Positions 23,063 to 52,095 are shown, counted from the stretch's first letter. The stretch: 64,000 nt of DNA from Phoronis australis (GCA_002633005.1 NMRA01001020.1:1-64000), one strand, 5' to 3'. Notes: generated by a model from the sequence alone, not told the origin. Translations and numbers: made by a program.

Positions 23063-24052
23063 NNNNNNNNNNNNNNNNNNNNNNNNNNNNNNNNNNNNNN
23101 NNNNNNNNNNNNNNNNNNNNNNNNNNNNNNNNNNNNNNNNNNNNNNNNNNNNNNNNNNNNNNNNNNNNNNNNNNNNNNNNNNNNNNNNNNNNNNNNNNNN
23201 NNNNNNNNNNNNNNNNNNNNNNNNNNNNNNNNNNNNNNNNNNNNNNNNNNNNNNNNNNNNNNNNNNNNNNNNNNNNNNNNNNNNNNNNNNNNNNNNNNNN
23301 NNNNNNNNNNNNNNNNNNNNNNNNNNNNNNNNNNNNNNNNNNNNNNNNNNNNNNNNNNNNNNNNNNNNNNNNNNNNNNNNNNNNNNNNNNNNNNNNNNNN
23401 NNNNNNNNNNNNNNNNNNNNNNNNNNNNNNNNNNNNNNNNNNNNNNNNNNNNNNNNNNNNNNNNNNNNNNNNNNNNNNNNNNNNNNNNNNNNNNNNNNNN
23501 NNNNNNNNNNNNNNNNNNNNNNNNNNNNNNNNNNNNNNNNNNNNNNNNNNNNNNNNNNNNNNNNNNNNNNNNNNNNNNNNNNNNNNNNNNNNNNNNNNNN
23601 NNNNNNNNNNNNNNNNNNNNNNNNNNNNNNNNNNNNNNNNNNNNNNNNNNNNNNNNNNNNNNNNNNNNNNNNNNNNNNNNNNNNNNNNNNNNNNNNNNNN
23701 NNNNNNNNNNNNNNNNNNNNNNNNNNNNNNNNNNNNNNNNNNNNNNNNNNNNNNNNNNNNNNNNNNNNNNNNNNNNNNNNNNNNNNNNNNNNNNNNNNNN
23801 NNNNNNNNNNNNNNNNNNNNNNNNNNNNNNNNNNNNNNNNNNNNNNNNNNNNNNNNNNNNNNNNNNNNNNNNNNNNNNNNNNNNNNNNNNNNNNNNNNNN
23901 NNNNNNNNNNNNNNNNNNNNNNNNNNNNNNNNNNNNNNNNNNNNNNNNNNNNNNNNNNNNNNNNNNNNNNNNNNNNNNNNNNNNNNNNNNNNNNNNNNNN
24001 NNNNNNNNNNNNNNNNNNNNNNNNNNNNNNNNNNNNNNNNNNNNNNNNNNNN
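23063..24052. other. Assembly gap (N run)
   Basis: 990 consecutive N. Confidence 1.
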
Positions 24053-24211
24053 ATGCTTCGCCATCAACAGCAGGTACCTATTCTAGCTTTGGATAATGGC
24101 ACATTATAGCATTCTGTAATGTTAACAGCAACAGAAAGTGTATTGTTTTTACCAAGGTATCAGCAGCCAATTGCCATCTCACGTTAACATGGATTTGATT
24201 TTATGTTGTAG

Positions 24212-26340: not shown

Positions 26341-27789
26341 TAGAAGTCAGTGCGTCAAAGAAGCTGCCTGACAGAGGTTATTTAAGATGACATGGCAACT
26401 GGGTGTTATTCAGTCATGTGCCCTAGTTTGTTGCAGAGGATCATCTGGTACTACAGTTTGGTTTATAGTCATGATACATCCAGTTATGCAGAAGTTAACA
26501 TGTCCAGTCAGGCCGTCGACCTTCAAACTCTGCCATGGGCAGTTTGTGTAGTGTCAATTTGGAAACTGTCAAGGCTTGTAATTTTCCTCTTTTAAGAGGA
26601 TTTACTATCTCTTGGTTTCGATTTCCTCTTATTGCATTTCCAATTTCCTCTTTATGTCTCTTTTTTGACCATTATTTTGACTTCTATACCAAAAATCTCT
26701 ATCAAAGACCCTAGTATTAATTTGTGGAATGATACATCACCTGTCATTGATCATTCCAAGCCCTGAACCTTAACTTTGTACAAACAATTTCTTTATGGAG
26801 CGTTTGGTTTACAGAAACACTTTCTACATGGTGAGTAAGATACAACTGGTAATACCAGTTTAACTTGTATTACCATTGGATAGTTTTATTGATTCTTAAC
26901 TATTTTCTCGGCCAAATGTGTAGTCAGTGGTTTGTCTTCAGCTGGGTCATAGAGAGGGGGATATTTGTATACAAGGGTCACCATGAAGCTTCTCTGTTAC
27001 GTAAAATTGTTTTTAGTGATGTTTTACTGCTTAGGCAATTCACATTCATATTAAAACCTGCATTTAGAAATCTTGAATTTGAGAGTGATGGTGTTGAACA
27101 TTACAATATATATTTTGAATGGCTATGCTGTTGGGTTAGAGGTTGTGCTTGTAAGTAAGGTGTGTTACATGAGTAGCAGATTACTCGCGATTGGTCATTG
27201 CAAAAGCTATAGAACTTTTAATCAGAAAATGTTGCAACTTCTGATTATGGGCCATGGCCAAACAACCAGGAGACTATGTCTATTGAAAGGACATCTTGTT
27301 TTGTTAATTTTGTCCAATCATCTTTCTGTCACCTGCTAATGCATCATTGGCGTTAATCAGGAAAGACAAAAGCAGGAATCAACTAAAAACTCATACCCCT
27401 ATCTCACAAATTAGACATTATGTTCCTTGGTCGGTGGCCTTTCCCACAGTTGCATGCAATTTGCTAAAAGCGTACGTCATGCTTTTACTGTTTAGCAGAC
27501 GTTGAAATTTTTTTTGAAAATTTCCTCCAAGTTTTGAGGGTTTTCGATGGTTACAGAGCATTAATTTGTTGCAGAGAACTAGGTGGGAAGTCGATTTTAG
27601 TATTTTACTTTATTTTGAAAAGTTAATCCATTACTGGTTTTTCGAAATTTGGGCCGTTGCCCTACATGACGGTAACTAATTTAAGAATGCTCTAGGTTCT
27701 TGTTGCAAGTCAAAATCCAAATGGACTTTCTATACTAGACTAAGAAATAAAAAGTTCACTCTGACAGTTGTGCTTTCATCTCACAAAGT

Positions 27790-29603
27790 AACAATTGTGC
27801 ACAAGCAGGTTTCAGTGCTCAGCTACAATTTTTGTGTAGCCTGTATGTCCCAATAAAGTCTGTGAATATTTTTGTCCAAACACAACTGTGCAACTCTGTC
27901 CACATGTCTTCCAAGATGTCCATGTTGCCCCAAGATAAAGTTTCTGTATGCCTGATGTCAGTTAGACGCATTCTGATCAGTCTCTGGCTTCAGTGTCATC
28001 ACATTTCGTTGCAGCTTGTCGAAGGCAAGTACACCTTCTCCAGGCAAAACACTTGGAAATCCTGAAAGCATTGGTAAAATATATTACCGTGCGGTTTCGC
28101 ATTACTGTAGATTTGATAAGGAACATTTGTCTCTTGTAAATGAATTATATACAACAGCAACTGGTTGATTGGGGTTGACATCCTATATTGGACAATCAAA
28201 ACGTATAGAATTATTTTCATTATTGCAGACTGAACTCACCAATACTTTTGTAAATTGACATTTGGTTGGTTTTGGATGGGATTTGCTACTGAGATTTGAT
28301 TGTAGTTCTTGGCCAAAGATTGGTTTTGCTTCAAAAAATGATTTGAATTGTGTGGCTGTATATCTGTTTAAACCAATTGAAGATTCAAAACTTATGTAGC
28401 TATAGGAGTGTTTGAGGTCCTGGTGACATTAATATGAATCACCTAAAAATGAAAAAGAGCAGACCAAAAAAGAACTAAACAATTTTGTAAAATATTTCCC
28501 ACTGATATATGTAGTCTGTAGTCAATACTAAAAACTTTGTAGTGATTAAATTTTTAGACAACGGTTTAGTGAATACTTACAGGTAATAATGAAATGCAGT
28601 TAGCAGATTGCTTCCCACAGCACACTTTTATTTCTGGTTGGCATTTCTTGACACCTGTGACACGTTCTGATGGTGCTGGGTAATGATCCAGTGAAGTGAC
28701 CTCTGCTAGCCTAAATTCTAGACGCGGGGGTCTTGCTTGGCGACATCCAACATTAGGTCTCTCAATTCCTTCTTTTATTCATGCGACTGATTCGACCCTA
28801 AAGTGAGAGTAATTCAGTGACATTCACAGTAATAAGAACAATTTTTATAACTTTGTTTGTATTGTTGTAGGATTTATTTGCCAACAAGTACAAAGACAAC
28901 CACTGTATGACTATCAGATTAGAACTCATCTACTGGTTTAGGATTGGGTTTTGGATTAATTCATAGGCGGATTTAGGGGGGGACAGGGGGCCTGGCCCTC
29001 CCCCCCCCCTTGGCTGCCGCAAAAGGGGGGGGGGGGGCTCGGACCCGATCGTATCGGGACCTGCGTAAACGCCTTCTCATTTTTTTGTTTTTTTAGTCCA
29101 CTGTTAGCTTTGTACTACGAGGACCAGAAATTGGAGCAACCCAATTTTTCGGGCTGGGTTCTCGCACTCAATCGTAAACCACACTTGCCCAAGACAAAAT
29201 GTTGCCCGCGGCCCCCTTATGGTATCCTCGATCCGCCAATGTAATTTAGAGATGCAGCCATGGATCGTTTCTACCCCATGCACTAGGTCCAGAGCTCTAT
29301 AATTGCAAACCCATGCAGTCCCAGGGCCTGGAAATTGAATATCACAGTGTCACGCAGGAAACTTATTTTTCGTAAGCAACTGATATCGTGCACCTCCGAG
29401 TTGTACATAATCTCCCAGAGGAGGAAACGTTAACAACCAAACTCGACGAAGTCATGAATCACTAAGACTCGATTGCAGATTTAAAATTGAACACAACTCA
29501 CGAGACTGTAGCCTGTATGTTATGTAATATAGGCATAGACAAGTACAAGCTGGCAAGAAGTCCCAAAACACCTAACTGACCTCGACCGCTTGTACTTGAC
29601 ATG
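27790..29603 (-). pseudogene. KolX-like / P2X7 C-terminal-like gene remnant, multi-exon
   Basis: FQVFCLEKVYL.../N*HQAYRNFILGQHGHLGRHVDRV at about 28045-27890. Upstream AG/GT-bounded exon remnants at about 28241-28443 and 28581-28797. Confidence 0.55.
28962..29241. mobile_element. hAT-like MITE (GGCGGAT family), 5-bp TSD
   Basis: CATAGGCGGATTTAGG...CCTCGATCCGCCAATG with TAATT on both flanks. Confidence 0.88.
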
Positions 29604-31883
29604 TTTCTCTTCCGTCAGCTGATTCGTGTGCATTATGGGTAATCTCTCCACTGGCAACCCCGCATAAATAATGAGGTTTGGCTGAAGGTCCGCCCATTTT
29701 TTATGAATTTAAAAAATTAATAGTAAAATAACGAGAGTATGTACATGGCTGTAATTTACGAAAAGAGTTAATTTTAGTGATATCTTTCGATTGGCAAAGC
29801 TCAATTTGTGATCTAAGCAGGCGAAAGTAAAGGAAATAGTGACTTTAATAGGCAGATGTTTGTGCATGGAAATGGTTTCCAGTAGTAGAATAGATAGCAC
29901 GGGTTCCAGTTAATTGTGTATTGTTAGCGAGGTACATGTAGTATTTGCCTGTCGTAGAGTCATTGTCGCGAGTCTTTCTAACGCTCTTGGTATATAGTGC
30001 TTGTTAATTACGCTTGCTTGCCGAGTACTCAGACTGTGTGTTTTTATTCATTACAGATAACCGCTTTTTCGGTTTCTCCTTTAAAACGCTTGTTCGGAAT
30101 CTTTTCAACTAAATAATAAAGTGTGTTATGTAAACGACTTTTAACTTATCCCTGTAGCCAGACGCTGCTACAATTATATAATGACTCGAGATCGGCTTTT
30201 GTGAAAAGTATATCAGCACAAAATTCCCGGTTAAAACTGTTTACAGTTAAACCATGGTATAACGATTCAAAGTGGCGCATCTGACGCATTTTTATCATTT
30301 TTCAATCTTGCTGGGGTGAATTTTTGTAGGTGGATTCTTTGAGGTATACTCTTTCAAAGGAATCGTTACAATTTTTTCGCAGACTGACCGTTTTGAGTTT
30401 TTTGACTTTCAATTTCAGAAAAAAAATGCAAAGTTTCAATTTTCTTGAAACTTTTGTGTAATTTTGTGGAACTACTCTGTAAGTTAGATTTTTGAACGTT
30501 CTTTCAGAAAATGTATCTATTTTTCGTTAAGACGTCTCTTTTTTAATTATTCGGGATTTTCTGATTACACTGTTCCTTTGTTGACAGATTTTTTATGCAC
30601 TTCTGTTGCTTTTGTTTGTTTCTCTGTTCACTTCTCACACCAGTGTTTTACGAGCGTACTCGTTGTGTCCAATGGAAGATTCAGATGAAGGACATGTGAG
30701 CTCTGAAAAATCTGTACGTCCGAAAAGCGGGCCAACCGGCAAGCGTAACACGACGGACGCAACACGACGACTGTAAATATTCCAATCGTTAGCAGATCAT
30801 CCAACAAGTTTCAACTAAATGGATGTTATACGTGAGGAGATGTCTCACGTAGTGCGAGAAAAGCAACCTAATTTGCTGACAACTTCTTACATCTAGACGT
30901 ACATGTAAGTGACTTTTGTTTTACCGAATTATAATCTACTACAGGTTAGTACACTACTATTTTTGTTCAATGCTACTGTACATTCTTTGTGCATTGCTAA
31001 TTTACAAGTAACTCTACAACTAACGTCAACGGCAGAGGCGGCTCTCGCTTTTCGACTTTTTTGAAAAGAATTCTGGGAACGAAATTAAGTATAACGCCCA
31101 GTAGTCAATTTGGGCAACAAATGAAAGACAGCTTTAAACACCATACAGTCACTAAGATTAAAATTCTTCGAAAATGTCACCAACCTTTCTCTGAGACCTT
31201 GTTTTTGCCTCCTGTAGAAAGTGATACATACGCTATTTACAAGTGTAAATTCGAGATCCACCCCATTATTTTTTCTCATTCTCCTTCTCTGAACACAAAC
31301 TTCGGATCCATTATGTATTTATTTCAATAACAGTTAATTAGTCTGACTATATGTAATGCCTCCTTCGCCAAACTTTATTTCACTCGTCGTTTAATTAAGA
31401 CTATGATGTCGAGCAAAGTTCTTACTAAAAGTGGCGCTGTAGTACAGTAAAGAAATCGATGGGTGACTTCTCGGCGAATGCCATTCCTGGTTTCCACTCA
31501 CTAATACGGTCTGGAGTTCCGAGAGACTCAGCCATGCATTGTGTCCGGGCATAACAAGATAAAACACACTACAAGCCATTGAAACGACCCTACAATTGGT
31601 CTCTCGTAGTTGTTAAAACAAACCTGAACTTGAAAACAATTTCCACACGTATGACCACTTGCCACGTTGACCTACTCTTGGGTGTTACAATTACACACAC
31701 TTCTAACAGGCAATTCCTACACAGCGGAAACCTCAACACCTGAAAATCACCATAAAGTCCTAGTAGCACACGTTTTAACCCTTATTAAATGTTTAGAAGA
31801 AATTATAAAGCTCTTAACACGTGGCTATTAGATTTTGCTACTGTATATGTCACTGAAATTTATTTTACTGACTGAGAACTTAA

Positions 31884-33890: not shown

Positions 33891-34699
33891 AAATATGACC
33901 TTTTCAATCAGCAAGTATTCTGATGTGTCAACCGTTAGACAACTGTGATTCTCCGCGTTAAAGGCCTATGGTCCGAGTTATAGAAGAAAAAACCTCTTGA
34001 CGCCGTTTAAGCCGGTTTTTTGATGTGACATGGAGTTCAAAAAGTTATTAACTTTCAACTTGTGCAAAAAGTTTGAAAAAAATCGTTGTAAATACTACAA
34101 ACGAATGAAATGTTTACGAAGAATTTAGTATCCCGACTGCTAAACAGATTATAAACATTACAACAACGCATGCGCAGCCACAGATCTAGAGGTCAACAGA
34201 ATTTATACAAATGGCGGGGTCAGAAGTAGATCTATGAAGTGTACGTCCGAAGGCGAAACGCAGTCGTCCTCCTCTACGAGATTCAGAAAAAGACGTGTTA
34301 GCCAGTACAAAAAGCGGCATTACTAACAAACTTTGTACCTGTAATCGACTCGTTCGATAGGTGAGAAACAATGAGGACAATGGTTAACTACGGTCCTGAA
34401 TCGAAGTTAACTGTGCCAGTTGACTTCACAGTAGACAAGCGGAGCGTCGATGCTGTGGTGTACGGTAGTATGAATGATTAACTTCGGTTACATCGAAGAA
34501 GTTATTGTCAGGGGCCACTGCTATCATCGACAATTACCGGGTAATGTCGTCGCTAAACGCTGCTCATATTTTGCTCGAGTAGTTACTAATCGAATTAGAA
34601 ATAGGTTTTTGTGTCCATTAGCACATGTCAATGTTCCCAAATTATCACATTAAAAAATCCTTGTGTACAAGTGTTGCATCAGCACTACTGTGTGGAATC

Positions 34700-34772
34700 A
34701 TAGACTATAGTACATGGACCGCCAACTCCGTTTACTTTCAATGGACGAAATCTGTGGTCTTACGCACAAGCC
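34700..34772 (+). mobile_element. Left terminus of the P-like CATAGAC family, ending at a single N
   Basis: Nearly identical to 36492-36565. Confidence 0.7.
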
Positions 34773-35000: not shown

Positions 35001-35641
35001 TACACACTTGGTTTATGACCTGGGAGCACCAACAAAAGATTGCAAGAATGCTTCAACAATAAACTGATCCTGATCTTGGAAACTCCTTCGGTCTAGAGTT
35101 GAAACTGTACAGTTCACATTATTTGACTATACCAAGAAACCATTCATGTTAAAAAACAATGGAAAGCACATGGGACACATCTATCTGAATTTGAACGGAC
35201 AAAATTTCATTCAAACGAAAAGTACCATGCAAACCCATGAAATATGAAATCGCTTTGGTAAAATGTAACAACTTGTTATATTTTAGGAGAGGCCTAGCAG
35301 AGCAAAATGTAACAACTTGTTATATTTTAATCAGCACATAATTGAGTGGAAACAAATTAAGCACTGTACAACAGGTAACCCTGTGTACAGTATGACAATT
35401 GAGGTACCTTTTCCCAAAGTTAAACATTCTACCATACCCCGAGCTACCATATCAAGAAATTAAAATGATCTCAGATATTCTGAAAGCGAGCTAAATGAGC
35501 ATTGAGCTTGTGCAAAACATATTGTGTTGGTTGAACAAGTTGACCATGAAATACCTGTAATGGATCACAAATCTTCACTTTTGTTCATTTAATTCATTTC
35601 AACCTTGACACTTTTCTGCTGACAAATATGCAACAACTCAC

Positions 35642-35863
35642 CGGAAATCACAACACCATGAACTTGTACTTCACACAGCGTGAGGATCCCATCTTCATCG
35701 AAAATCTGTATATACAAATAGCGCCCAAACACTGGATGACTACAGTTTATACGTAGTGTGTCTCCTGTACTAGCACGTCCTGGGTAGCGACTACACTGTT
35801 GGGATGGGGCAGGTAGACTTGAGCTGTTGGTTACATTGACAAAAAAGTTATGGAGCCGCTCAC
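35642..35863 (-). CDS. F-type lectin domain 2, C-terminal exon
   Basis: AG/GT-bounded, 222 bp, phase 1-1, open: GERLHNFFVNVTNSS...QCSRYPG...GDTLRINCSHPVFGRYLYIQIFDEDGILTLCEVQVHG. Confidence 0.9.
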
Positions 35864-37612
35864 CTATTGAAATAAGAACAGACAGACATCAAGTGTGAAC
35901 AGCAAGTCAGTGAAAACACAGCAGATCGGTCTAGAGGCCATGAAAAGTGCATATACCAGTGACATCTTTTGGTCAAATACGTCAGTAGTGAAAGGGTCTA
36001 CCCCCAAATTAAGCTCATTTTGGTGTTTTGTTTATTTTTAGATAAATGTAATTCGCGGAGGCTATCTATAAGACCAACCACAAAAATGAGAATGGGAAAC
36101 ATAAATTATAAGTTTCCAACACTTCGCCGAGGAGCATTACACAAAAACTGAAAAAATCTTCACACATCATGCAATCAATGGCAAACGCCCACAAAAAAAC
36201 ATTTTTTTCAAAAAAATAGGTTTCATTGGTATGGAAAACCTTCACGGCAAAAACCTCGTACCGATCATATAATCCAAGTTGTGTTTTAGTAACCTTATTT
36301 ATTACTAAGACCTAAGTAACAGTGTATTCATAATACCCAATTTGTACCAATCACTAATTGTTAGCTTTTGCACCCTCAACTAAACCTCCCACCTTCGATC
36401 TCATTATAACATTGAGTCTTCAATTAAAGCAATATGCAGAATCACAAGAACAGCAAAGATTTCAGTGTAAACAATGCAAACAGACTTGTATCATAGACTA
36501 TAGTACATGGACCGCCAACTCCGTTTACTTTCAATGGACGAAATCTGTGAGCTTGCGCACAAGCCTTTACGTCATTATTCACTGGCGACACCTGGCTCAA
36601 TTATCTGGTGTAATTTCCGGCAAGTACGTCGTCTGCTAATCATGGTCGGTTGCTGTGTGGCCGGTTGTTCGGCTACGCAGGCGAAGTGCAGAGGCGTTAG
36701 CTTCCATAGTGTACGAAGACCACAAAATCCGCTTTGGGAGAAAAAGTTAAGTTCTTGCGTCGACGTGAATGGAAGTTTTTCTTCCAAAAAAAAACTCATA
36801 CATTTGTTCACGACACTTCGAAGATGGGTGTTTTTTAAGAGGCTCTGGTAGGCCTACTACTTAATCCTGTCTTCACAAATCCATTTTTCTTTTCTCCGTT
36901 TTGATGAAAACTATCTGGTAAACTTTTTGACGAAAAATGTCCGCTAAATTTCTTCCAATGGTAGTGACTGGTGAACTCTTGTCCTTACGAGGACCTTCAG
37001 CCATAGTCTAGTGAGCGAATTAACCAAATTACTCTTAGGTGGCCCTGATCAGACGGTTGGTCTCAGCATAATGCGCAGATTTGGCCAGGATTTGGATCAG
37101 CGATTTCAACAAATTCACATTCGTGTACAAATAAATAGGACGCTAGTAAAACCTTTAACATAAATAAAGATTACATTAATACTTCAGAAATAAATACCTG
37201 GACCTGTCAAAATCTATCCCGCAATTCAACAGCAGGTTACATACTCAATTATTTATGTCGACTGTATGCCGCACAAAACTTGAACCATCTTAGCCAAGTA
37301 CGCTGCAGTCTATGAAAATACCAGAATAACGAAAAACCTCGGAAGCAAGGGAAATGAACCCTAAGAGGTAGCAAGCAAGATAAAGGGGGTGGTAGGGACG
37401 TGAAGCTGACGTGTGCTAATTTTCAATTTCATACTTTTATGTGGCATTTTCATAATTTTGATTTGAGATGTCAACTCAGATCAAACGGTTTGAAAGTTCG
37501 GATTTTTAATTTGTAATGAACTTGAGTTGCACTGCACGTGACCTTTTATGAATTTACCGTAGTTGGCTACAGACAGGCCCACCTTTATAAAAACTAGCAA
37601 CGTAGACAAACG

Positions 37613-37769
37613 CATGCGCGCACCCAGGGGAAAAGTCCAAGAGAAAGAGACGAAAGTCCACAATACGGCAGCACCCCGTTTTTTATTTTAGTTCTCACGC
37701 TTTTTGTTAGCAAAAGGTCCACTTTGCCAGAGATTCGAGCCCCCGTATTAGAGGCTGGGTGCGCGCATG
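37613..37769. mobile_element. CATGCGCGCACCCAG MITE, 5-bp TSD AAACG
   Basis: Perfect 15-bp TIR with AAACG on both sides. Confidence 0.9.
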
Positions 37770-38048
37770 AAACGTCTACACAAATTGCACCCAATGCAGC
37801 TCCTGGTTTAAACGCGGGCTTCTTTTTCAAAGTTTGGTCAGGTATAAATAACGCCACAAACATGGAGGTTCACTGAAACACGTCTACCTTACAGATGTGA
37901 CAATCCCTAGCCACGGAAAACTTGAGAGGCCGACAAAAATACTAATGATGAAATACCGGTGATGATAATCATCCACTTTGTTAATTTACTTCACCTACAC
38001 AATTGGAAATAGCCGCTAAAATGAAACTCATTCGAGTAAGCACCACGT

Positions 38049-38188
38049 CATGCGCGCACTCAGAGGGGGGGTTCGAGCCCCCCCCATTTCGCGAAGTGGG
38101 GAAAAAGGTCTGCCCGCTCTCTTGTTAACAACAGGTCCATAACGTCAGGAATTCGAGCGCCCCATTTTGAAGACTGGGTGCGCGCATG
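38049..38188. mobile_element. CATGCGCGCACCCAG MITE, 5-bp TSD CACGT
   Basis: TIR with one mismatch and CACGT on both sides. Confidence 0.9.
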
Positions 38189-38684
38189 CACGTGAGTCCC
38201 TGGACAGCCCCAATATGGTAGAACCCAAGGAGCTCAAGTCGGGGTTAAATCAGGATGGGCATAAATAAGGAAATTTACTGTATCAACAGATTAGACAAAT
38301 AAGAATAAGATACAAAGCATTGATACAGTGTACACGCGCACAATAACTGGGTCTATCATTTTCCCGCCGCAAGCGATTGAACCAATCGGATCACCAATGG
38401 CGCAAACCTTTCGAAAACAAGCCTGATTTTTAGGGAGTCTGTTACTGCTCTTTATATTTTCAAAACTTTAATTTGTTATAGTTAATTTATTTGCTGTGCA
38501 CCTCAATGAGACCAGTTCATATATATGCATTTAACACGATTAATACATTGTAAAACCATAGATTATGCACTATCAACATGAGACAAAAACAGTACACCCC
38601 TTTATTAAAAAATGGGTTAAAGGTTAGAAACAAAGGACGAGAGCGTAGACAAGTTTCCATCACTTGCAACGTCGATTTTTTACG

Positions 38685-39001
38685 ATGGACGTTGGAGAAG
38701 AACATCAGTCTGGTGACAGCAACACGGAATCGCACGAAGGCGATGATTTTCGAAATTTGATTCGTTGTGTTGTTTGTCATTTTTTCCTACAGTTCAGGAT
38801 TATTTGTGGATACAGGAACAAGAACTGAACGATGCAGGGTTCGTGACAACGTTGGTGAACGGTAATATCTATCTAAGGTGTTACAACTGTCATCGATATT
38901 GTCATCTCCTCTGTTTTCATCCAACCTTCCCAGATGAAAACTTGAATGAAGAGGACCTTCAGTACTTGAGTGAGCATGGTATACTGTGTGATTTATGTTG
39001 A
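38685..39001 (+). CDS. Small intronless PHD-type (C4HC3) zinc-finger protein, about 105 aa, with one frameshift in a T run
   Basis: MDVGEEHQSGDSNTESHEGDDFRNLIRCVVCHF joins, by adding one T at 38780-38785, to FPTVQDYLW...LRCYNCHRYCHLLCFHP...ILCDLC*. All eight C4HC3 ligands are present. Confidence 0.65.
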
Positions 39002-39006
39002 ATTAT

Positions 39007-39092
39007 TCAACGGTTCTTTTAAGAACCATTTCACGCTATACCTACAACCAACGGCCCTTTTAAGGGCCACTCAACACTTCCCAGAAGAACTG
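39007..39092 (+). terminator. Two histone-mRNA-type 3' stem-loops plus an HDE-like purine motif
   Basis: TCAAC-GGTTCT-TTTA-AGAACC-ATTTC (39012-39027), CCAAC-GGCCCT-TTTA-AGGGCC-ACTCA (39053-39068), and AGAAGAACTG at 39083-39092. Confidence 0.8.
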
Positions 39093-39662
39093 CTCACTTG
39101 AGAATGTTGATTTATCAACACGCTTTCGTAGTTTTCTCAGTAGGCCTATGTGAACCGTAAATCAAAAACTGTCCGATAACTATGCTGCTATTGGGCAAGC
39201 AGACGACATAAAGGGTCGGAACCGAAGTTTGAATTTTGAAATTAATTACCAGTAGCATTGCCAAAAGTACTCACAATACCAACACTTCTACTATTGAAAG
39301 ATTTTGAAGAGCGTTTCAATACCGAAATTAATATAAATTAATGTTTTTTTCGCTGTTTTGGACAGTAAAGTAGATGCAGGTATTTCTCGTCAAATTAAAA
39401 CTGACCGGAAACTGCAGCAGATAGGTCAGGAGAGGTCAACTCAGCTTGTAAGAATATGCTGGAGTTGCGAATCTGTTGTCTATAATCTATGCTTGTATGT
39501 AGTTGGAGGCCTTAGAGACATCATCCAGAAAAAATCTCAACCAATCAGCGTAAAGTGGTTCATATGACATCATCGTGGCCATGAAATTACTGGGAAGCCA
39601 CACTGCGTAACAGCTGAGTGCTATTTCTTGGACGTTCTGTACTTGTCAATCTCTGGGCTAAA

Positions 39663-39935
39663 ATGCCTCTTTGCATGGTGTGCGGTTGTAGCAATGTCAG
39701 CGACAATGTGATACATTTGCACAACTTCCCCACCGATCATGTCGTGTGCCGTGCGTGGAATAGATTTGTATCAACGACAAGGACTGGCGACAAACTTTCC
39801 TGATCGGCAAGATCTGTTTTAGGCTTGGTGCAAAGCCGTAGCCCTATACAAAATCTACAGCTTCGCGTAGATGTGGGTAAAAATGACTAAATAAAATCTG
39901 ACTCAGAAATAGTCTCATTAAAAGCTGCACCATTC
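39663..39935 (+). pseudogene. THAP-domain remnant (transposon-derived)
   Basis: MPLCMVCGCSNVSDNVIHLHNFPTDHVVCRAWNRFVSTTR, then decayed. Confidence 0.7.
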
Positions 39936-42475
39936 TTTGAGTGAGTAAACCAAATTATTTACCGGTGTTGGAAGAATTATCGTTCTACCGCTCATCTACT
40001 GCTAAAATTGAAGTGCGTTATTGTGTGTCGGCGTTTTGCCATTACGTCACCTGACCTGAACAGTTTCTTTCCCTCCCGGTTCATTCTATCAACTCTTCTT
40101 TGCTGGCTCGAGGTTGTGTACTGTCACAGCAAATTGTCCGAATTTAGAACAATCTTTACTGCTGCTGCGAAGCTGTCATCATGTCCCAAAAGAAGTCGCA
40201 AAATTTTAATACGGTACGTGCGCTTGTCACGAGTGTACTGTTTTCAAAATGATTTTCTTTGTTACACAACTCAAAAGGTGCAGAGTAATGCTAGAAAATG
40301 ACGTTTATTAGATTGTTCTTCCCGTAAACGACTGGCAACGAGCAAGGTGAGTGTCCGAATTGTCTCCCAGATTTTGCATGCACCCCAGAGGTCGGTCGTT
40401 GGCTCTGCGATATAATTTTCATAACGAGGTGACTAACACAACTCGTACCCGGCCTGTATGATATTTCGTGGTTTAACAGAGCTCAATTCACAGTGTTACC
40501 TTGATGTATATTGGCGATAGTCTTCAAACAGCTAGCTGGCTGGCTACAAAAAATCTGAAGTGTGATCACAAATTCTTATAATTGGGTATGTTTTCATGCA
40601 ATCCAGACTTTATTGGGTAGTTTTAATTTATTGCATACACTCACAATGTTGTGTTGCTATTAAATTTTCATTTTTTTTTAGGTTGACCGAGTGGCGGTGA
40701 TTAGGCTATGGGTTGCAGCATTTCAAGGCGACTTAATTTGAAAATTGAGTTTCTAATATAAAGTTTTCAATGAATTTGATTATAATTGCTTTGTACGAAA
40801 AGATCAAGCTGATATGTGTTGTAATGTTTCCAAGTATTTTGCACCAAATTAAACGGCCTATTGTTGCCTATACCAATACGGGACACACAATCGACAGCCG
40901 CCTGTATTGGAATCGTGCAGCATTCACACCTTCGGCTTCAAAGAAGTCAATGCAAAGCTCCTAACATCAAAGTATTTCTATCAAGCAAATTACTCTTTAT
41001 AATTAACATTGTGAAATTGCTGATAACAATACAGATGAAGCGATTTGTTTTTAACGGCCGTTTCGACAGCCCCAGTCACACTCCTGGGGATTCCCATATA
41101 GGCCCGTATTAGAATATGATGCTAAATAAATGAATAAAAATTCTAAAGGTAATGATTTTGATCAATTTTAATATTAACTACCATGAAATGAAAAATTAAT
41201 GTGTTGCCTTGATTTTCCACGTATTTTGCACTAAATTAAATGGCCAGTCATCGCTGATTCCAGTACTATGGAGACACAATGAAAGCCAAATTCGTGGTAA
41301 TGATGATGTCATAGACTTCGATTGGCGCGAGCGCCGTCTCAACTTTTTTTTTTGGCGCTAAATGGGGTTCGTGATGGTGTTATCGTATTGTCGAAGGCCT
41401 ACTTAATTAACGACTGGGGTATGCTATCACACAGTATTTTGATGTTTTTTATCAATAAATGTATTTTAGATGTAAAAATAGTCATTTTGGCACCATACTT
41501 GGCCTTTAAAGAATCCGTGAATGATGTGTTGACAAGATTACAAAAGACTGATCCTTGGGTGTCTACCCATTGTTTAGTCAAAGAACAACACCTAGCGGTA
41601 TAAAATCACAAAGAAGACTTGGCAAGGTCCTAGAGTCATTTCAAATAACTGCGATCATACATATGTTAATTGTTAATGTAAAATAAAACCAATCCTCGAC
41701 CCTGCTTTAGATTCTTGGCAGATCATGCTTCATGCATAAAACTGACAGCTAAGACAAGGCAACTGGTAGAAGTATGGCATTCTCTCGTTGAGTCCAACTT
41801 GTTTTGTAGTATAGTACAACAAGTTGGGCATTTATGGTGGGAGGGCCAGCTCTTTTTTGTTCGATAATTGCACTAATCTCGCATAAGATCCTATCTAGCA
41901 TGACTGGGCTGTGCTGCTGAAAATAAAAGTCGAGTAATAAATGTTTGAACATAAACCAATAGTATTTCTGATTTTCCTCATCAAATGCTGATCATGTTTA
42001 GATTTTGAATGACCAAAATCACAACAAAATACAACTGAAGTTAAGACAATCTATTCTGTCCAAACGTACCAACGCACTGGGTTTGACTGTGTTCACATGT
42101 GGTTGGTAATAAGCTTGGTAGATAATTGGCCTGCATGTTGTCATACCAGACAAAAGACTGTGCTCGGCAGTAAACCAAGGAGCTAGATAATATCAGTACC
42201 TCTCTATATCTGGTAAAAGTCACTGAACAGGATAACACCTAATGGTACACACTTGTTGAGCCTGGTCTGAACCAATGACCTGACTGGTCAAGTCCAGGTA
42301 TCAGCTCTAATTTGAGTAAGGAACACCACGGGACCAATTTCATGACCCACACCATTAAACTAAATCACAACATATTTTTTTGTGAATACACATTTATAGC
42401 ATTAGTCCGTATACAAAAATTAGTTTTAGTGAATTGTGACTTCATCAAAACATTTCAAATGAAGGTGCAATTTAC

Positions 42476-42679
42476 CACAACAGTCTTTTCGGTTCAGTAT
42501 AGTGACATCAGAAATAGAGTACACAGCTAACAGGTCCACTCTCCACCAGGGGTCCTTCTCTTCAACTGTGTGAGTACAGTAGGTGTAGTGTTGACTCAGG
42601 TCCCCATCCACAGCTTTTGAAGAAGTGTAAGAACCCATTGTGCTGGACTGTTGAGTTGGTTTGTTAGCAGCGATATTCC
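42476..42679 (-). CDS. F-type lectin domain 2, N-terminal exon
   Basis: AG/GT-bounded, 204 bp, phase 1-1: NIAANKPTQQSST...SSKAVDG...CTHTVEEKDPWWRVDL...VTILNRKDCC. With the next exon it forms the canonical HX26RXDX4R motif. Confidence 0.92.
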
Positions 42680-44544
42680 CTGAAATAAAACCACAATAAT
42701 GGAGAAGAGTTATATTTAGGGAAACAACAAAACTGAGGGAGACAATGTCTTTGACAAGAATGGTCATTAAGTACAGCGAGAAATATGAATTAGCAGTTAA
42801 CCATATAAAACACATTTTGGTAACACACAAGTCAATGCCAAGTCTGAAGAAATATCAGGAACAATCATTTTAAATTTGACATCAGTGAGTAGAAGGAAAG
42901 GTGGGAGGGAAGGATGAATAGAGATAGAGAGGCCGGTGTAGAGCAAGGGAGGGAGAGGGAGCGAGTTTTACATCTTGCTGAAATGACAATAACACTAGAA
43001 ACAAACAAACACATTTCATAATAAGAAAGCCTATACTTTTTGCTATAAAATTACATAATCAGAACATAACGTTTGAGATGTAATTTTACTTGAAGTTGCT
43101 ATCCCTGGAATAATCTTTAGTGATCTACAATTTAAACCACCATTTTGTACAGAGGAGAGCAACGGCAAACAAAAGGTCCGAAGAAGACTGACATTTGTTT
43201 TATTTCTATATGTTTTATTTTGCTATTCTCTATTTGTTTTCTAGAAGATTGTGCTTGATTGACATGACCCATGAGGTCAAGTGATGATGTAAGTTGTTTA
43301 CAATAGCACACTAGACAACATTCTAACACGTTCCAGCATATTAGTGACAAATATAGAACCAAATCAGTTTTTGGCCACAATAAGATCAAAAACCGGACGA
43401 TAGCTGCACAAATAAAGTTGTAAAGAAATTGTTGTAAATATGATCCTGATGATGTCTAATGAAAACACGAAACGTTGAATTGAACATGAACTTTTTTATT
43501 TGTGCGGCGATCGTCCGGTTTTTAATATAGAACCAGTGGTCTGGAACATTATCGAGTATATGTGTTTGTAGAATGATTGGGTAGATTCTAGAAAGTTCAA
43601 GATTGTGGTCTAAGAGGTGACAGGAACATGGATTCCACAATGTCGCAAGTGGTGCCGTGCGGTCACGCCAAGGTGATTATTTCTATAGACTCTGAGAGAT
43701 CCCAAGTCAGAGTCAGTGGAGATGACATTTTCTGAGTGTCAGTAATATATGGCCAGGCTATAGAAATTCAATTATCACCCAAGTTGTTTTTAGCTGAATG
43801 GCTCCATCGAGTTTACAGTCATTTAGCTTTTCCAACCCCGACTCAAAAGTCCTGGGACACCCTCGCATATTCCCCAGTGATAAAATATATTTCATTTACA
43901 AGAAACACAATCAAATGTAACTTTTGTCTCAAATCTGCCACTACCACATAGTTCTTGGGAGAATACATTGTTTGAGTAATGTTAATAGGTAAAAAAACTG
44001 CCATATTTGACAAAGATTAATAGGATTAAAGATGAAAAACAGGTTTTCATCATGGGATGTCATAGTACCCAGACCTAACCAAAATCAAGGACAGTCGTGT
44101 TCTTTTCAATACAACATATATGCCAACTTTCATTACGTTTTTGGCAGGATTGGCGGATAGAGAGGTGGATGACAAAAAAGACTTGAAAATCTTAAAAATG
44201 GTCACTAGGTGGAACAGAATACGTCAAATCCATCAACAAATAAAAAGGTATAGTGCATTTGCCAAATTTTATGAAAATTGATCACACAAACACGAAAAAC
44301 AAATTTTGCCACTAGAGGGCCCAGCAGTGACTGAATCAGTCCAAAATCCATTTTCTTTCTTTAGCATCACAGGAACATATTTTCTAAATCTTGCGAAGAT
44401 CCTGTAAATACAGTAGCAGACTGCAGATGCCTAGACAGAGATGATGGAAATGTGGATATGTGGGTGCATGTAACAATTTTGTAAAATTTTGGAGAGTATT
44501 CTTTAGCTGTGAGAAAACACCCTTTTAGGCGTCACTTTTCATAA

Positions 44545-45111: not shown

Positions 45112-46802
45112 TAATAACCTCTTCTATAGGAATACCTTTCGAGCTGACATGGCATGAATTTGGCTAACCATTATAATTATTATTATTACTATTACTACAA
45201 CAAGTGCTGTTTCAAAAGAATTTTAATGGGGTTCTTAAGTTCAACCTTAACGATAATGTGAGAAACGTTTTGATAGCTGTGGATGTAGAGTAGGCCAACT
45301 TTTTGGAAACGAGGAGGTTGAGATTTAAATTCTTGTTTAGACATGCACCAACTTCAAAAATTGATTATTTTTTAACTATTGGCAAGCTCGGAAGTGTTTG
45401 TAATACAGCTATATCCTTCTGTAGTTTGCCATGAAGAACTGAATTCAGACTATAATCTTTTACTTGGGACTTACATCTAAATGTGAGGATATCCACAATG
45501 TTATCATTTTTTGTCTCTTGCTGAAAACAAATTTCCTTCTCAAAGAACTGGGGCTCCTTCTATGATGATTTGTAACTTAGTCAAAAATTGCCTTTAGTTG
45601 AACTCTGGAGACAGGCATTTTTTCAAGAACTGGCGGCTAGTCAGCTATGGCTGCGGTCACTGTGTCATTAAAATAGCTGGTAACGGACAAACGAAACATC
45701 CAACAATTTTATGTGGAATTGACCCCCTATATTCTTAAAAGAATACAGTAAGGGATTGGTACTAGGTTTCGTTAAAAGTGTTGTATGGAACAAAAACGGC
45801 CAACGTCAAAATCAGCGATGGCTTTAAATATGCGGCGCAAGTTTTTTATGCAATGTAGCAAAGGGTTTATACACCAAATTCCCTTGTCTGCCTAAAACCA
45901 CGTATGTTGTTGACAACGAGCTGCGACACAAAAAACAGTGCCTCGTGAGACACGTGGGTTCACATCTTTTAATAGAATGTCCTATCTTTGTCTTTTTACA
46001 TATATACTTCAGACTAACGAACATTGATAAAATAACAATCGTATGGTAATTGCTATTTTAGCTTAAAAGATAATTTGAAGAGAAGTTGCATGTTTTTGTA
46101 GTCTGTGGGAATGGTCCCCTTCATAAGAAACTTGCCCCATACAGTGGTGAGACGTACTTCGTCAATAGATTTTTACTACTAAATTGGTAGACAGAACCCG
46201 TCACAATCAGAAACTTTGATCTAGCTCCTTTTGTGTGGAGCAGGTCAATTACCGCATCAGCGATGACTTCAAGGCAATAAAACACTGACTGAAATAGATC
46301 AAACTATTGTGGACTAACGGGTGATTTTTCTATGAAATTGGCTTCTGAAATTGAAGTCTCCATGAACAATTTTGTTGTGGTCATTTTTTCCCGAAGAGAT
46401 ACAATAAATTCTGGCCAAAATATGGAATTGCTTCTGTTTTGCTTACCAAGGGAAGTCTGTAATGCCAGTTACACACTTGGTTTATGACCTGTGAGCGCCA
46501 ACAAAAGATTGCAAGAACACTTCAACAATAAACTTGTAACCTGATCCTGAAAACTGCTTTCGTCTGGAGTTGAAACTGTACAGGGTACACTTCTGACTAT
46601 ACCAAGAAACCATTCGTGTTAAAAAACAATGGAAAGCACATGGGGACACATCTATAAATTAGAGCTGGACAGAATTTCATTCAAACAATCTGACATAAAA
46701 TGTAACAACTCGTTACAGTTTAGAAGAGGCCTAGCACCATCAAATTAACATTTTACGAAATTGTTACATCGTATCAGAGCATAAATGAGTGGAAAAAAGT
46801 AA

Positions 46803-47220
46803 GCATTGTACAACATGTGTAAGGACACTGTGTACAGGTCACATTATACAACATGTGTAAGGACACTGTGTACAGGTCACATTATACAACATGTGTAAGG
46901 ACACTGTGTACAGATCACATTATACAACATGTGTAAGGACACTGTGTACAGTAACACATTGTGCAACATGTGTAAGGACACTGTGTACAGTAACATTGTG
47001 CAACATGTGTAAGAACACTGTGTACAGGTCACATTATACAGCATGTGTAAGGACACTGTGTACAGATCACATTGTACAACATGTGTAAGGACACTGTGAA
47101 CAGTAACACATTGTACAACGTGTGTAAGGACACTGTGCACAGTAACACATTGTACAACATGTGTAAGGACACTGTGTACAGCAACACATTGTACAACATG
47201 TGTAAGGACACTGTGTACAG
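46803..47220. repeat. Minisatellite, about 38-40-bp unit, about 11 copies
   Basis: CATTGTACAACATGTGTAAGGACACTGTGTACAG(GTCA/TAACA) repeated in tandem. Confidence 0.95.
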
Positions 47221-47473
47221 TATGACATTTGAGGTACCTTTTCCCAAAGTTAAAGATTCTACCATACCCTGAGTCACCCTATCAAGAAATTTAAATGATC
47301 TCAGATATTCTGAAAGCGAGTTGAATGAGCATTGCGCTTGATGTGCAAAACCTGCTGTATTGGCTCTACAATTTAACTATGAAATACCTGTAATGGATCA
47401 CAAATTTTCACTTTTGTTCATTTAATTCATCCCAACCTTGATACTTTCTACCGACAAATATGCAACAACTCAC

Positions 47474-47698
47474 CGGAAGAAATCACAACACCATGAACTT
47501 GTACTTCACACAGCGCGAGGACCCCATCTTCATCGAGAATCTGTATATACAAATAGCGCCCAAACACTGGATGACTACAGGTTATACGTAGTGTGTCTCC
47601 TGTACTAGCACGTCCTGGGTAGCGACTACACTGTTGGGATGGGGCAGATGGGCTTGAGGTGTTGGTTACCTTGACAACAAAGTTATGGAGCCGCTCAC
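47474..47698 (-). CDS. F-type lectin domain 1, C-terminal exon
   Basis: AG/GT-bounded, 225 bp, phase 1-1, open: GERLHNFVVKVTNTS...GRYLYIQILDEDGVLALCEVQVHGVVISS. Confidence 0.9.
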
Positions 47699-49955
47699 CT
47701 ATTGAAATAAGAACAGACAGACATCAAGTGTGAACAGCAAGTCAGTGAAAACACAGCAGATCGGTCTAGAGGCCATGAAAAGGGCATATACCAGTGATGT
47801 CTTTTTGGTCAAGTACTTCAGTAGTGAAAGGATCTACCCCCAAATTAGCCTAAGCTCATTTTGGTGTTTTTCTTGTTTTTAGATTCATGTAATTCGCAGA
47901 GGCTATCTATAAGACCAACATCAAAAACGAGAATGGGAAACATAAATCGTGAATTTCCAACCCTTCGCCGAGGAGCACTTCACAAAAAAATCTTCACACA
48001 ACATGCAATCAATGGCAAAGGCACAAAAACACACTTACTGTTGAAATTTCATATAGCTGTTAATGGGATCAAATAAAAGTGTATAACTTCTAGGATCCCA
48101 TTCTGCCACGCAGTTGGCTTAAATCAGTTTGAAACTTCGCTGCGTGGAGTTTTAAGGTAACCGTCCAAACTTGTGTGTGCAAAATGAGCGAGTTGATAGA
48201 GACAACTTAAGTAAGTTTCAATAAAAAACATTTTTTCAAAAAATAGGTTTTAATGGTATGGAAAACCTTCACGGCAAAATCCTTGTACCAATCACATATC
48301 CAAGTTGTGCTTTAGTAGCCTTATTTATTACTAAGAGTTAAGTAACAGTGTATTCATAATACCCAACCAGTACCATTTACTAATTGTTGGCTTTGGCACC
48401 CACAACTAAAGCTCCCACCTTCCGTATTATAAAATTGAAAGCCTTTAATTCAAGCAATACACAGAATCACAAGAACAGTAAGAGTTCATTGTAAACAATC
48501 GACTTAACAGACTTGTATGCAGTTGGAGCCCTTAAAGAAATCGTCCAGCAGCTAAAACACTTTTTTGACACCAGGAAAGTATGTATTGTTCATACAAAAT
48601 GTTGTTTTTGCTTCTTACATACCACGGAAAGTAATTAATTGCAACGCAAATTACACTGCTCATAATTCGTAGCCCCTTCAAGAGCCCCAGAAAAAATCTC
48701 AACCAATCAGCGTAAAGTAATGTTGTGTTGCAAGATTGAGAATTCACTTGAGAATGAAACAAGTATGTTTCGAAATATCGTGTCTTTTAATTATGTCGAT
48801 AGGTCAGTTACTGTATCTATGTTCAGTTGAGAGTAGAGTTTTGTTCAGAAAGTATGAACGCAACGGAATAAAGACCATGAACAATGAAAAGTGTCGTGCA
48901 TTTAACAAATTCTGTATAACAGAAAACTTGCTCCCGAAGTACAGTCAGTTGACAAGATTAGAAAAAGTAAAACTGATCCTTGGGTGTCTACCCATTGTTT
49001 AGTCAAAGAACGACACCTAGCGGTATAAAATCACCAAGACTTTACAAGGTTCTAGTCAGGCCTAATTTCAAGTAACTGTGATCATACATGTGTTAATTGT
49101 TAATGTAAAATAAAACCAATCATCTGTCCTGCTTTAGTTTCTTGGCATGTAAAGAGCTCCCAGAATGTTAATGTTACAGATCATGCTTCACGCACAAAAT
49201 TGACAGCTAAGACAAGCCAACTGGTAGAAGTATGGCATTCTCCCGTTGAGTCTAACTTGTTCGGTTGTATACCACAACAACAAGTTGGGCGGATGACCAT
49301 TGTAGCCTGTACTGAGTGATTAAGTACATTCTGGCCAGCTCTCTTTTGTTCGATAATTGCGCTAATCTCGCATAAGATCCTATCTAGCATGACTGGGCTG
49401 TGCTGTTAAAAATAAAAGTTGAGTTAGCTGTTTAATGTTTGAACATAAGGCAATAGCATTTCTGAATTCCTCGTCAAATGCTGATTATGTTTAGGTTTTG
49501 AATGACCAAAATCACCCCAAATACAACTGAAGTTAAGACAATCTATTCTGTCCTAACATACCAACGCACTGGGTTTGACTGTGTTAACATGTGGTTGGTA
49601 ATAAGCTTGGTAGATAATTGGCCCGCATGTTGTCATACCAGACAAAAGACTGTGCTTGGTAGTTAACCAAGGAGATAGATAATATCAGTACCTAGTCACT
49701 GAACAGGAGAACACCCTAATGGTACAAACTTGTTGAGCCTGATCTGAACCAATGACCTGACTGGTCAAGTCCAGCTATCAGCTCTAATTTGAGTAAGGAA
49801 CAATGTGAGACCAATTTCATGACCCACACCATTACACTAAATCACAACTTATTTTTTATGAATACACATTTATAGCAACTCTAAGTCGGTATATAAAAAT
49901 TAGCTTTAGTGAATTGTGACTTCATCAAAACACTTCAAATGAAGGTAAAACTTAC

Positions 49956-50159
49956 CACAACAGCCACCTCGGTTCACTATAGTAACATCAGAAATAGAGT
50001 ACACAGCTAACAGGTCCACTCTCCACCAGGGGTCCTTCTCATCAACTGTGTGAGCACAGTAGGTGTAGTGTTGTGTCAGGTCCCCATCCACAGCTTTTGA
50101 AGATGTGAGACCTAGATATGTGCTGGACTGTTGAGTTGGTTTGTTAGCAGCGATATTCA
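49956..50159 (-). CDS. F-type lectin domain 1, N-terminal exon
   Basis: AG/GT-bounded, 204 bp, phase 1-1: NIAANKPTQQSSTY...AVDG...CAHTVDEKDPWWRVDL...NRGGCC. Confidence 0.92.
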
Positions 50160-52095
50160 CTGAAATAAAACCACAATAATGGAGAAGACTTATTTTTAGA
50201 GAAACAACAAAACTGAGGAGACAATGTCTTTGACAAGAATGGTCGTTAAGTACAGCGAGAAATATGAATTAGCAGTTAACCATGTAAAACACATTTTGGT
50301 AACATAGAAGTCAGTGCCAATCTGAAGAAATATCAGGAACAATCATTTTAAATTTGGCATCAGTGAGTAGAAGGAAAGGTGGGAGGGAAGGATGAATAGA
50401 GATGGAGAGGCCGGTGTAGAACAAGGGAGGGAGAGGGAGCGAGTTTTACATTTTGCTGAAATGACAATAACACTAGAAACAAACAAACACATTTCATAAT
50501 AAGAAAGCCTATACTTTTTGCTACAAAATTACATAATCAGATCATAACCTTTGAGATGAAATTTTACTTGAAGTTGCTAGCTCTGAAATAATCTTTAGTG
50601 CTCTACAGTTTAAACCACCATTTTGTACAGAGGAGAGCAACGGCAACCAAAGGGTCCGAAGAAGACTGACATTTGTTTCATTTCTGTATGTTTTATTTTG
50701 CTATTCTCTATTTGTTTTCTAGAAGATCGCGCTTGATTGACATGACCCGCCATGAGGTCAAGTGATGATGTAAGTTGTTTACAATAGCACACCATGCAGA
50801 CAACATTCTAACACGTTCCAGCATATTAACGACAAATATAGAACCAAATCAGTTTTTAGCCACAATAAGATCAAAAACTGGACAATCGTCGCACAAATAA
50901 AAAAGTTGTAAATAAATTGTTGTAAATATGATCCTGATGATGTCTAATAAAAAGACGAAACATTGAATCGAACATGAACTTTTTTATTTGTGCGGCGATC
51001 ATCCATTTTTTAATATTATATTAATAAACTAACAGTATACATGAATCTAAAGCTGATGTACCTGCACAAGTGTTCACAGAGACTGTAGGTTGGAGCACAG
51101 GCACCTTTAAGTAGCAGTCTACAATATATATACTGGGGAGCCCAATGTTCGTCCGCCTAAGCATAAAACCGACTTGCTGTTGTACTCACCGAATTATTCC
51201 ACTTCAAAGTTATGATCTGAATAGGATTCGATTTAACTCTCACAGATATACCGCATTCATCGATTCGGAAGTTTTCTTTAATTTGTGCCGAGTTATTTCA
51301 AATGTGCACTGCCTTCGGCAGCCATTTTATTGTGACACCTAAGTTCGTCATATGCTGCCCCCTTTTGTAAAAACTGAGAAACATGCAGAAAAAGGCCAAC
51401 GAAGTAATGAAAATTGCAACAGCCTGTTTTTATTGACATAAACTCGATTTGAAGCTTTGATGTTGAGCTCTGCACTGTGGTTTCCAATAAAAGCCAATTG
51501 GACAACATTTCAATGCAGTTTAATGGTGAACGTGAGGCAAAAATGTTAAGAACCCAGCGTATCGCATTTGTCTGCGGATTTTTCCTTTGGCCTTCTAGAT
51601 CCTACTAGTGCCTGGGACAAACAGATACATTGCATAAACAAACCCTGGATCATGTTTTGTGTCCCGTCGGAAGAAAATTTAAATTCGAAAACATCTTCTG
51701 AAAACGCACAAAAAAGTGTATTAGTAAAATCTACTGATTTTTAAGTGGTTTTAAAAAACAATCGGTAAACTCACCGATTTCTGTCTCATTACTTTGATAC
51801 GTGTCTCTTCCGATAAGTTAGTACCTAACGTGCAGACGAGAACTCCAAATTGGAACGCTAAGTCCCGCGTGGTTGCGCTGCACGCGAAACAAGATGGCGG
51901 ACGAACTTTGGAGCCTGACGAAAATAGGTAACCGGACGATATTGTAGAGGGCTACTTAAAGGTGCCTGTTAGAGGCTGCCATATTGAGAACAGCCAGTGC
52001 CACCTATAGATGAACAGTGAGCCCTCTAGTGGCAGTACCAATATTGTCTATCTTCCCCCAACTCATTGGAGCACTGAGTCCGGCAGCGACAGTGG

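Follow-up and report, generated by a model that had tools for sequence, protein, structure and literature searches.

A PHD-finger micro-gene in a P-like DNA transposon of Phoronis australis is followed by two histone-type stem-loops

The window, the whole 64,000-nt stretch of Phoronis australis DNA that was analysed (GCA_002633005.1, NMRA01001020.1:1-64000), contains a 3,000-bp element with the ends of a DNA transposon. The element and the parts that define it, in window coordinates, are as follows.

36492-39491, plus strand: non-autonomous P-superfamily-like transposon, with terminal inverted repeats and a target-site duplication; RNA reads with mixed flanks break at both ends
36485-36491, plus strand: left target-site duplication, CTTGTAT (7 bp), present as a single copy at an empty paralogous site near 48512
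39492-39498, plus strand: right target-site duplication, CTTGTAT
36492-36503, plus strand: left terminal inverted repeat, 12 bp, with 1 mismatch against the right repeat and imperfect out to about 31 bp
39480-39491, minus strand: right terminal inverted repeat
36642-36861, plus strand: frameshifted THAP-domain remnant, two collinear Pfam THAP pieces
37613-37769, no strand assigned: nested MITE 1, with 15-bp inverted ends and the 5-bp duplication AAACG; reads skip 37607-37770
38049-38188, no strand assigned: nested MITE 2, with the 5-bp duplication CACGT; a contig skips 38047-38208

A reading made from the sequence alone had proposed that this locus holds a transposon-borne gene, and the inverted repeats, the target-site duplication, the empty paralogous site and the mixed flanks all bear this out. 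The segment 35001-43528 is duplicated, in diverged form, at 46470-51016; the duplicate has one CTTGTAT and the gene-bearing segment two, flanking exactly 3,000 bp. RNA reads enter mixed flanks at 36492 (78-165 per run) and at 39491 (94-133), with a consensus agreement of 0.43-0.49, and some reads join approximately 36660 to approximately 39260 and represent internal deletion derivatives. The mixed flanks at both ends and these derivatives indicate dispersed copies at different insertion sites. Both nested MITEs are missing from some element copies. Elsewhere in the window, 5543-6110 (approximate limits) is a short derivative of the same P-like family that has both ends and lacks the PHD gene described below, and 34699-34772 is another left end of the family, beside a single N.

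The THAP domain begins 150 bp inside the left end. Its two pieces match profile positions 1-38 at 14.9 bits and 49-61 at 17.4 bits, each below the 23.9 cut-off, and they are likely to be the start of a deleted transposase gene. Searching the interior of this internally deleted copy for a transposase catalytic core, with 65 fragments and three read-through frames, gave no informative Pfam match. The P-like assignment is made because of the element ends and the THAP remnant; target duplications in the P superfamily measure 7-8 bp, and two of its members, Galileo and 1360, have one of 7 bp (PMC3698922). Membership of Kolobok was excluded, as PMC9587614 gives that group a TTAA duplication and RR..YY ends, against the 7-bp CTTGTAT here. 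The element resembles the P superfamily (P, Galileo, 1360) and its deleted derivatives in its short inverted repeats, 7-bp duplication, left-end THAP domain and shorter two-ended derivatives. It differs in having no catalytic domain and in carrying a second gene, of which the available portions of the P-superfamily literature make no mention. Judged by these features, the element is a non-autonomous, P-superfamily-like DNA transposon of 3,000 bp that houses the PHD gene, and the window copy is a frameshifted, transposase-less derivative.

Several further features of the window were recorded. The MITEs at 37613-37769 and 38049-38188 have CATGCGCGCAC ends and 5-bp target duplications, and related sequence lies near 74-150 and 6271-6478. 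Two pairs of interleaved duplicated segments, 7906-12695 with 14217-30815 and 35001-43528 with 46470-51016, are 76-90% identical and each is broken by different insertions; they reflect either a segmental duplication of some age or two haplotypes that the assembly placed one after the other, and are the source of the empty sites. A further insertion at 39563-41313 has 26-nt imperfect inverted ends and is missing from the duplicated segment. A separate element at 19819-21596 carries THAP (Pfam E 9e-11) and HTH_Tnp_4 (E 4e-15) domains and is presumably of the Harbinger/ISL2EU type. Gypsy-like reverse transcriptase/RNase H/integrase-zinc-finger frames lie at 58326-61395, a second RNase H remnant at 53014-53706 and a zf-RVT remnant at 12857-13381, and a perfect palindrome of 84 bp lies at 62740-62823.

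Within the right half of the element lies the short gene, with the following features.

38382-38398, plus strand: two CCAAT pentamers, at 38382 and 38394, for which a promoter role is unsupported
38685-39001, plus strand: PHD-finger micro-gene, 105 aa on read-through and broken in the window copy (ATG 38685, TGA 38999-39001)
38780-38785, plus strand: run of six T, the site of the frame shift in the window copy, with one more base in other copies

The sequence-only reading had described a frame of about 105 aa here, with an acidic N-terminus and a one-base break at the T run, and each of these points was recovered. Its suggestion that a base of the T run is missing was likewise confirmed. In RNA runs X8, X9 and X10, an extra T was found at the run in 19 of 55, 11 of 37 and 6 of 11 reads respectively, and an extra C in 12 of 59, 6 of 38 and 0 of 12; among reads that stem from other copies, roughly half run through the break. 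A public protein, P0001, which is 94% identical to the C-terminal piece, also passes straight across it. DNA run X1 holds one extra-T contig with a depth of 438.5 out of 791 summed, the divergent pieces listed having depths of 4-16; this points to a large group of near-identical copies, depth being no copy number. Reads, contigs and P0001 thus agree that many other copies carry an uninterrupted PHD frame. Splicing into the AG at 38792 was rejected, because no joint or loose end lies there among the RNA rows shown and the +1 insertions account for the frame; among the joints listed, none falls inside the ORF or leads into 38793.

The copies record past purifying selection on the PHD frame: 24 of 36 variants fall at third codon positions, and 18 are synonymous against 9.6 expected (p about 0.002), the test covering 36 of the 40 best-supported variants after removal of two at the edge of the T run and two beyond the stop, with 131 further variants outside this set. 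A dead subfamily is common, having stops at 38727 (41 of 134 reads) and 38809 (36 of 101) and a lost first Cys (34 of 95). At 38766-38790, a divergent subfamily appears to have lost its first CxxC pair to small indels close by; it too has stops, yet is abundant.

The CCAAT pair had been put forward as upstream boxes of the gene. Both pentamers are present, but a promoter role for them finds no support: they lie about 290 nt upstream with five ATGs between, and the plus strand of the window has 72 CCAAT pentamers and four pairs within 20 nt, so that this pair is not unusual. No convincing promoter of the PHD gene was found locally.

The read-through protein has eight Cys/His ligands in C4HC3 order, and all eight align with a family of stand-alone PHD proteins, with a whole-length profile match of E 3e-26. 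When 1.84 billion representatives were searched with a profile, with no limit on length, six matches of 77-169 aa were obtained, and a second round gave 14 from 738 candidates. Members of the family are approximately 108 aa long and share an acidic SGxSxTES start, the C4HC3 ligands and a long insertion after the first knuckle. The window protein is 36-42% identical to these relatives and groups with P0001 and P0002 in a clade apart (100/99 support). One cluster of the family has five near-identical members, each on a different megabase contig, and another includes DPMN_056048 of Dreissena polymorpha. The Pfam PHD model scores the C-terminal piece of the window copy at 14.2 bits, under its 24-bit cut-off, and the relative P0003 passes Pfam PHD_NSD at 27.7 against 23.9; with its ligands aligned to a family that includes this relative, the protein is PHD-like, as had been claimed.

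Structure models of two relatives, P0003 and P0013, and not of the window protein itself, have pLDDT values of 71 and 76. A PHD finger is named in 42 of 50 rows of their structural matches (best Z 3.9, rmsd 2.8-3.6, 63-65 residues aligned), the best Foldseek E is 0.11, and the Atlas neighbours are all PHD and all under 0.9; these models resemble PHD fingers weakly but consistently. Sequence searches of the PDB gave nothing under E 0.03 for the PHD family. The window protein has a Tyr two residues before the His and no Asp after the third Cys, positions that presumably bear on H3-tail binding. The first 12 residues of P0003-P0023 and of the window protein form a nearly invariant acidic serine motif, SGESDTES-like, which is possibly a phosphorylation site or a histone-tail mimic.

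The region between the stop codon and the right end of the element holds four further features.

39012-39027, plus strand: histone-type stem-loop 1, GGTTCT-TTTA-AGAACC, 10 nt after the stop (RF00032 22.8 bits, E 0.0037)
39053-39068, plus strand: histone-type stem-loop 2, GGCCCT-TTTA-AGGGCC, 51 nt after the stop (RF00032 above gathering)
39083-39092, plus strand: HDE-like purine run AGAAGAACTG, seven purines then CTG, 14 nt after hairpin 2
39394-39399, plus strand: ATTAAA, a possible alternative poly(A) signal in the element

The positions, loops, stems and 10-nt and 14-nt spacings of the hairpins are those that the sequence-only reading had given. The Rfam Histone3 model (RF00032), which it had named as the check to be made, matches 39048-39094 at 36 bits against a gathering threshold of 34 (E 8.3e-7), the sole gathering-level Rfam match in the 64 kb; hairpin 1 alone falls below that threshold, and both are of the histone type. 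In both, the stem is 6 bp long with a G-C pair at its second position, and the loop is 4 nt long with a U at its third. A strict stem-loop pattern, written after the hairpins had been seen, has two matches in the window where 0.0012 would be expected; for the 70 nt nearest to any one stop the expected number is 6.6e-7. The hairpin region has a folding z of -3.7, and none of 200 shuffles folds as well. No histone domain was matched by Pfam in any frame tested.

The two hairpins form a 30-nt direct repeat, 73% identical with a spacing of 41, and their four stem differences are two compensatory pairs. This could have arisen by duplication with compensation or by two separate captures, and either suggests that the hairpin pair has been under selection for structure. 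In histone mRNAs the 26-nt stem-loop unit starts 25-60 nt past the stop (10.64898/2026.10.14.759114); here the unit of hairpin 2 starts at 46 nt, inside this range, and that of hairpin 1 at 5 nt, outside it. No purine run follows hairpin 1. The run behind hairpin 2 is weak evidence: for 4.7% of window positions, a 9-nt slot placed like the one here contains the start of a seven-purine run. Cleavage is predicted after 39073, five bases past hairpin 2. The stretch between the stop and the element end is free of AATAAA, in agreement with the earlier statement that none follows the stop, and PAS-like hexamers occur at 39330, 39364 and 39394.

Compared with the 3' end of metazoan replication-dependent histone genes (SLBP, U7 snRNP, CPSF73), the locus is alike in stem, loop, A/C-rich flanks, 46-nt spacing, purine run and absence of AATAAA. 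It differs in that the gene encodes a PHD-like protein and sits in a transposon, in that the hairpins are two in tandem, and in that cleavage is only predicted. By its sequence, then, this region would work like a histone 3' end, though the gene is not a histone gene.

Other copies were compared across the same region. In record 7 of run X5, another copy covering 38815-39110, six differences were found, five in the ORF, one in the spacer and none in the stems or purine run. Record 16 of run X6, which bears a second species label and is of low depth, spans both hairpins with two differences in 127 nt. For some divergent copies in X1 (records 1, 5 and 7, about 81-90% alike), the alignment begins at the ATG and stops shortly beyond hairpin 1; five X1 contigs diverge past 39044, and their hairpin 2 and purine run thus lie outside the alignment. 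None of the 40 listed variants falls within 39002-39110. The variant-free 3' region is weak evidence and partly an artefact, because the rows thin out already from 38933, where the divergent subfamily drops out (p about 0.02, later rows only).

Three RNA runs (X8, X9 and X10), of which 18-19% of the reads were read and whose library selection is unspecified, were examined over the gene and its 3' signal. A search for sequencing runs that contain the stretch listed none on record as RNA, which says nothing about expression. Both strands are covered across the whole element in all three, as is expected from copies within host transcripts. The first-mate-minus depth, which represents the sense strand if the libraries are of the dUTP type, is 43 (X8) and 30 (X9) over the ORF against about 12 over the upstream interior; X10 has no such excess. 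After the signal this depth is 27 and 41 in X8 and X9, against 20 and 31 over the hairpins; since it is at least as deep after the signal as over the hairpins, read-through transcripts exist. No pile-up of RNA ends occurs at 39073 or 39032 in these runs. The transcript end near 39073 that the sequence-only reading had expected was therefore not borne out in these libraries of unspecified selection: depth continues through the position. These results lean towards cleavage not being dominant in these RNA samples. Given that selection and tissue are unspecified and that less than one fifth of each run was read, an untailed message could have been missed. No poly(A) junction was found among the loose ends shown, beside which 392 further ones exist.

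Relatives of the PHD gene were also examined at their own loci, five of which (L003-L007) were fetched from metagenomes. In four of the five (L003, L004, L006 and L007) a long ORF directly follows the PHD frame, the distance from the PHD stop to the next ATG being 2 nt in L004 and L007; in L005 there is an interruption within the PHD frame. L004-L007 belong to a single family (80-99% DNA identity) and L003 to a second (66-69%), and these therefore represent two independent cases. The long ORF of L007 passes Pfam DUF7869, and has 335 relatives across molluscs, fish and insects, frequently within clusters that have several members; a PDB sequence search with it gave no match. From its motifs, it is taken to be a Sola1 (Sola-type) transposase. 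In L003:826-3169, L004:1836-4006 and L007:1-2462, splice-acceptor-like sequence stands before the PHD micro-ORF and the DUF7869 ORF after it, in a bicistronic-looking layout of which no description was found in the literature.

The PHD micro-ORFs beside DUF7869 (for example those of L003, L004 and L007), to which DPMN_056048 is related, have a size of about 105-114 aa, the acidic start, the insertion, an HP(T/S)FPD motif and the eight ligands in common with the window gene. They follow splice-acceptor-like sequence, run into a long ORF and lack a hairpin, whereas the window gene has the hairpins and lacks a DUF7869 ORF. None of the five loci gave an Rfam match at E 0.5, and the coupling of PHD gene to hairpin is therefore not family-wide. 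A Sola-type remnant in the window was considered and rejected: tblastn of the long ORFs of L003, L004 and L007 against it gave nothing under E 0.5. Among viral contigs there were two short weak matches (L001, L002), and a search of them with the family alignment gave none. A hairpin-pattern match inside a phage ORF (L008) and a 27-residue match in prokaryote genomes (L009) were both taken as chance. Given that the PHD gene stands beside a DUF7869 gene in its relatives and in a P-like element here, it resembles an accessory module that transposons of two kinds carry, and hairpins apparently accompany it only where the PHD gene ends a unit.

The data show the element with its copies, a frame that is open in many of them and was under purifying selection in the past, the ligand pattern of a PHD finger, and the two hairpins at their distances from the stop. 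The best explanation, which is given about an even chance of being right, is that a transposon accessory gene acquired a histone-type 3' end, and that in intact copies the message is bound by SLBP and cut by U7 after hairpin 2, coupling the helper it encodes to replication or oogenesis. On this explanation the PHD gene would have moved between transposon types as an accessory module. Beside the DUF7869 gene, presumably Sola-type, it would be an upstream ORF for which a separate 3' end is unnecessary; as a lone gene in the present element it would require one. Intact copies would transcribe a short PHD message for which the two stem-loops after the stop are a working histone-mRNA 3' end, SLBP being predicted to bind the hairpin and the U7 snRNP to cut at the position given above. 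With an end of the histone type, the message would be coupled to DNA replication or to storage in the oocyte, the times at which cut-and-paste elements multiply, and the PHD protein would be a candidate chromatin-binding helper acting in targeting or counter-silencing. Of the original proposal that a non-histone mobile gene has adopted histone 3' processing, the gene, the element and the histone-type hairpins stand; the transcript end at 39073 is a prediction to which the RNA runs lend no support.

In the main rival explanation, the hairpins are passengers: one or two pieces of a histone 3' UTR, copied in by gap filling or template switching in the manner of Pack-TIRs and spread unused with a recently amplified subfamily. 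Cases of TIR elements taking up host DNA, some of them multicopy, are described for animals in PMC8277862. The continuation of RNA through the signal and the lack of hairpins in the relatives are consistent with this, and many copies are near-identical or dead, so that their conservation may reflect youth. Nevertheless, passenger hairpins appear unlikely, though they deserve serious weight, for two reasons: first, two hairpins with compensatory stems would have to have arrived in sense orientation 10 and 51 nt past a stop with no histone coding remnant. Second, some of the divergent copies stay aligned through hairpin 1. In both this element and the multicopy Pack-TIRs of animals (PMC8277862), a TIR element amplifies internal sequence foreign to its transposase; Pack-TIRs carry host gene fragments, whereas the cargo here is a whole selected gene from a mobile-looking family with an RNA-processing signal, and no parental host locus was identified.

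The hairpins could also be used, but for something other than U7 cleavage. In this scenario the message receives its poly(A) tail farther downstream, the ATTAAA at 39394 being one candidate site, and SLBP bound to the internal hairpins serves storage, translation or decay control, or the hairpins are an SLBP decoy. Read-through depth past 39073, the PAS-like hexamers downstream, the position of hairpin 1 too near the stop and with no purine run, and the weakly non-random run after hairpin 2 would all fit. This scenario is considered rather improbable, given that hairpin 2 is canonically spaced with a purine run at the HDE position and that no poly(A) junction appears among the loose ends shown. 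A further suggestion, that the signal ends a longer element transcript running from the left end through THAP transposase and PHD gene, or blocks read-through out of the element, draws on the shared orientation of the THAP remnant and the PHD frame, the bicistronic-looking relatives with their 2-nt stop-to-ATG distance and the failure to find a convincing local promoter; it is very doubtful, as minus-mate depth between THAP and PHD lies below that over the ORF in X8 and X9. That chance or faulty assembly produced the frame or the hairpins, as the frameshift of the window copy and the sub-threshold Pfam PHD score of its C-terminal piece might suggest, is scarcely credible in the face of the Rfam match, the profile match to the whole read-through protein and the independent runs that contain the stretch.

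The explanation by an acquired, working histone-type end has to be set against what is known of such ends. In PMC6303110 and PMC4604434, histone mRNAs are the sole metazoan mRNAs known to have a stem-loop end. According to the latter, SLBP in human cells targets essentially histone mRNAs only, which counts against this explanation, and the one non-histone human interval with a stem-loop is unexpressed. Within a literature whose subscription papers were incompletely covered, no description was found of a histone stem-loop on a gene carried by a transposon, or of P or Sola elements that contain a PHD gene, and the accessible portions of 10.64898/2026.08.17.745202, PMC8230255 and PMC4455052 hold nothing on a PHD gene with a histone-type end.

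In its widest form, the explanation holds that a stand-alone PHD accessory gene is exchanged between DNA transposon superfamilies and that the present lineage has connected this gene to the SLBP/U7 pathway; the result would be an mRNA that encodes no histone, lacks poly(A) and is coupled to replication, and its product would read or mask marks on chromatin at the time when transposition is most profitable. This is put forward tentatively, with somewhat less than even confidence. If true, a selected, multicopy transposon gene with a histone-type end would break the histone-only rule, and selfish DNA would be able to tap the RNA control of S phase or the oocyte. Transcriptomes based on poly(A) would then miss a class of transposon messages. 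The unnamed family of approximately 108-aa PHD proteins, found in two transposon-type contexts, would be a candidate for a shared accessory with which transposons handle chromatin.
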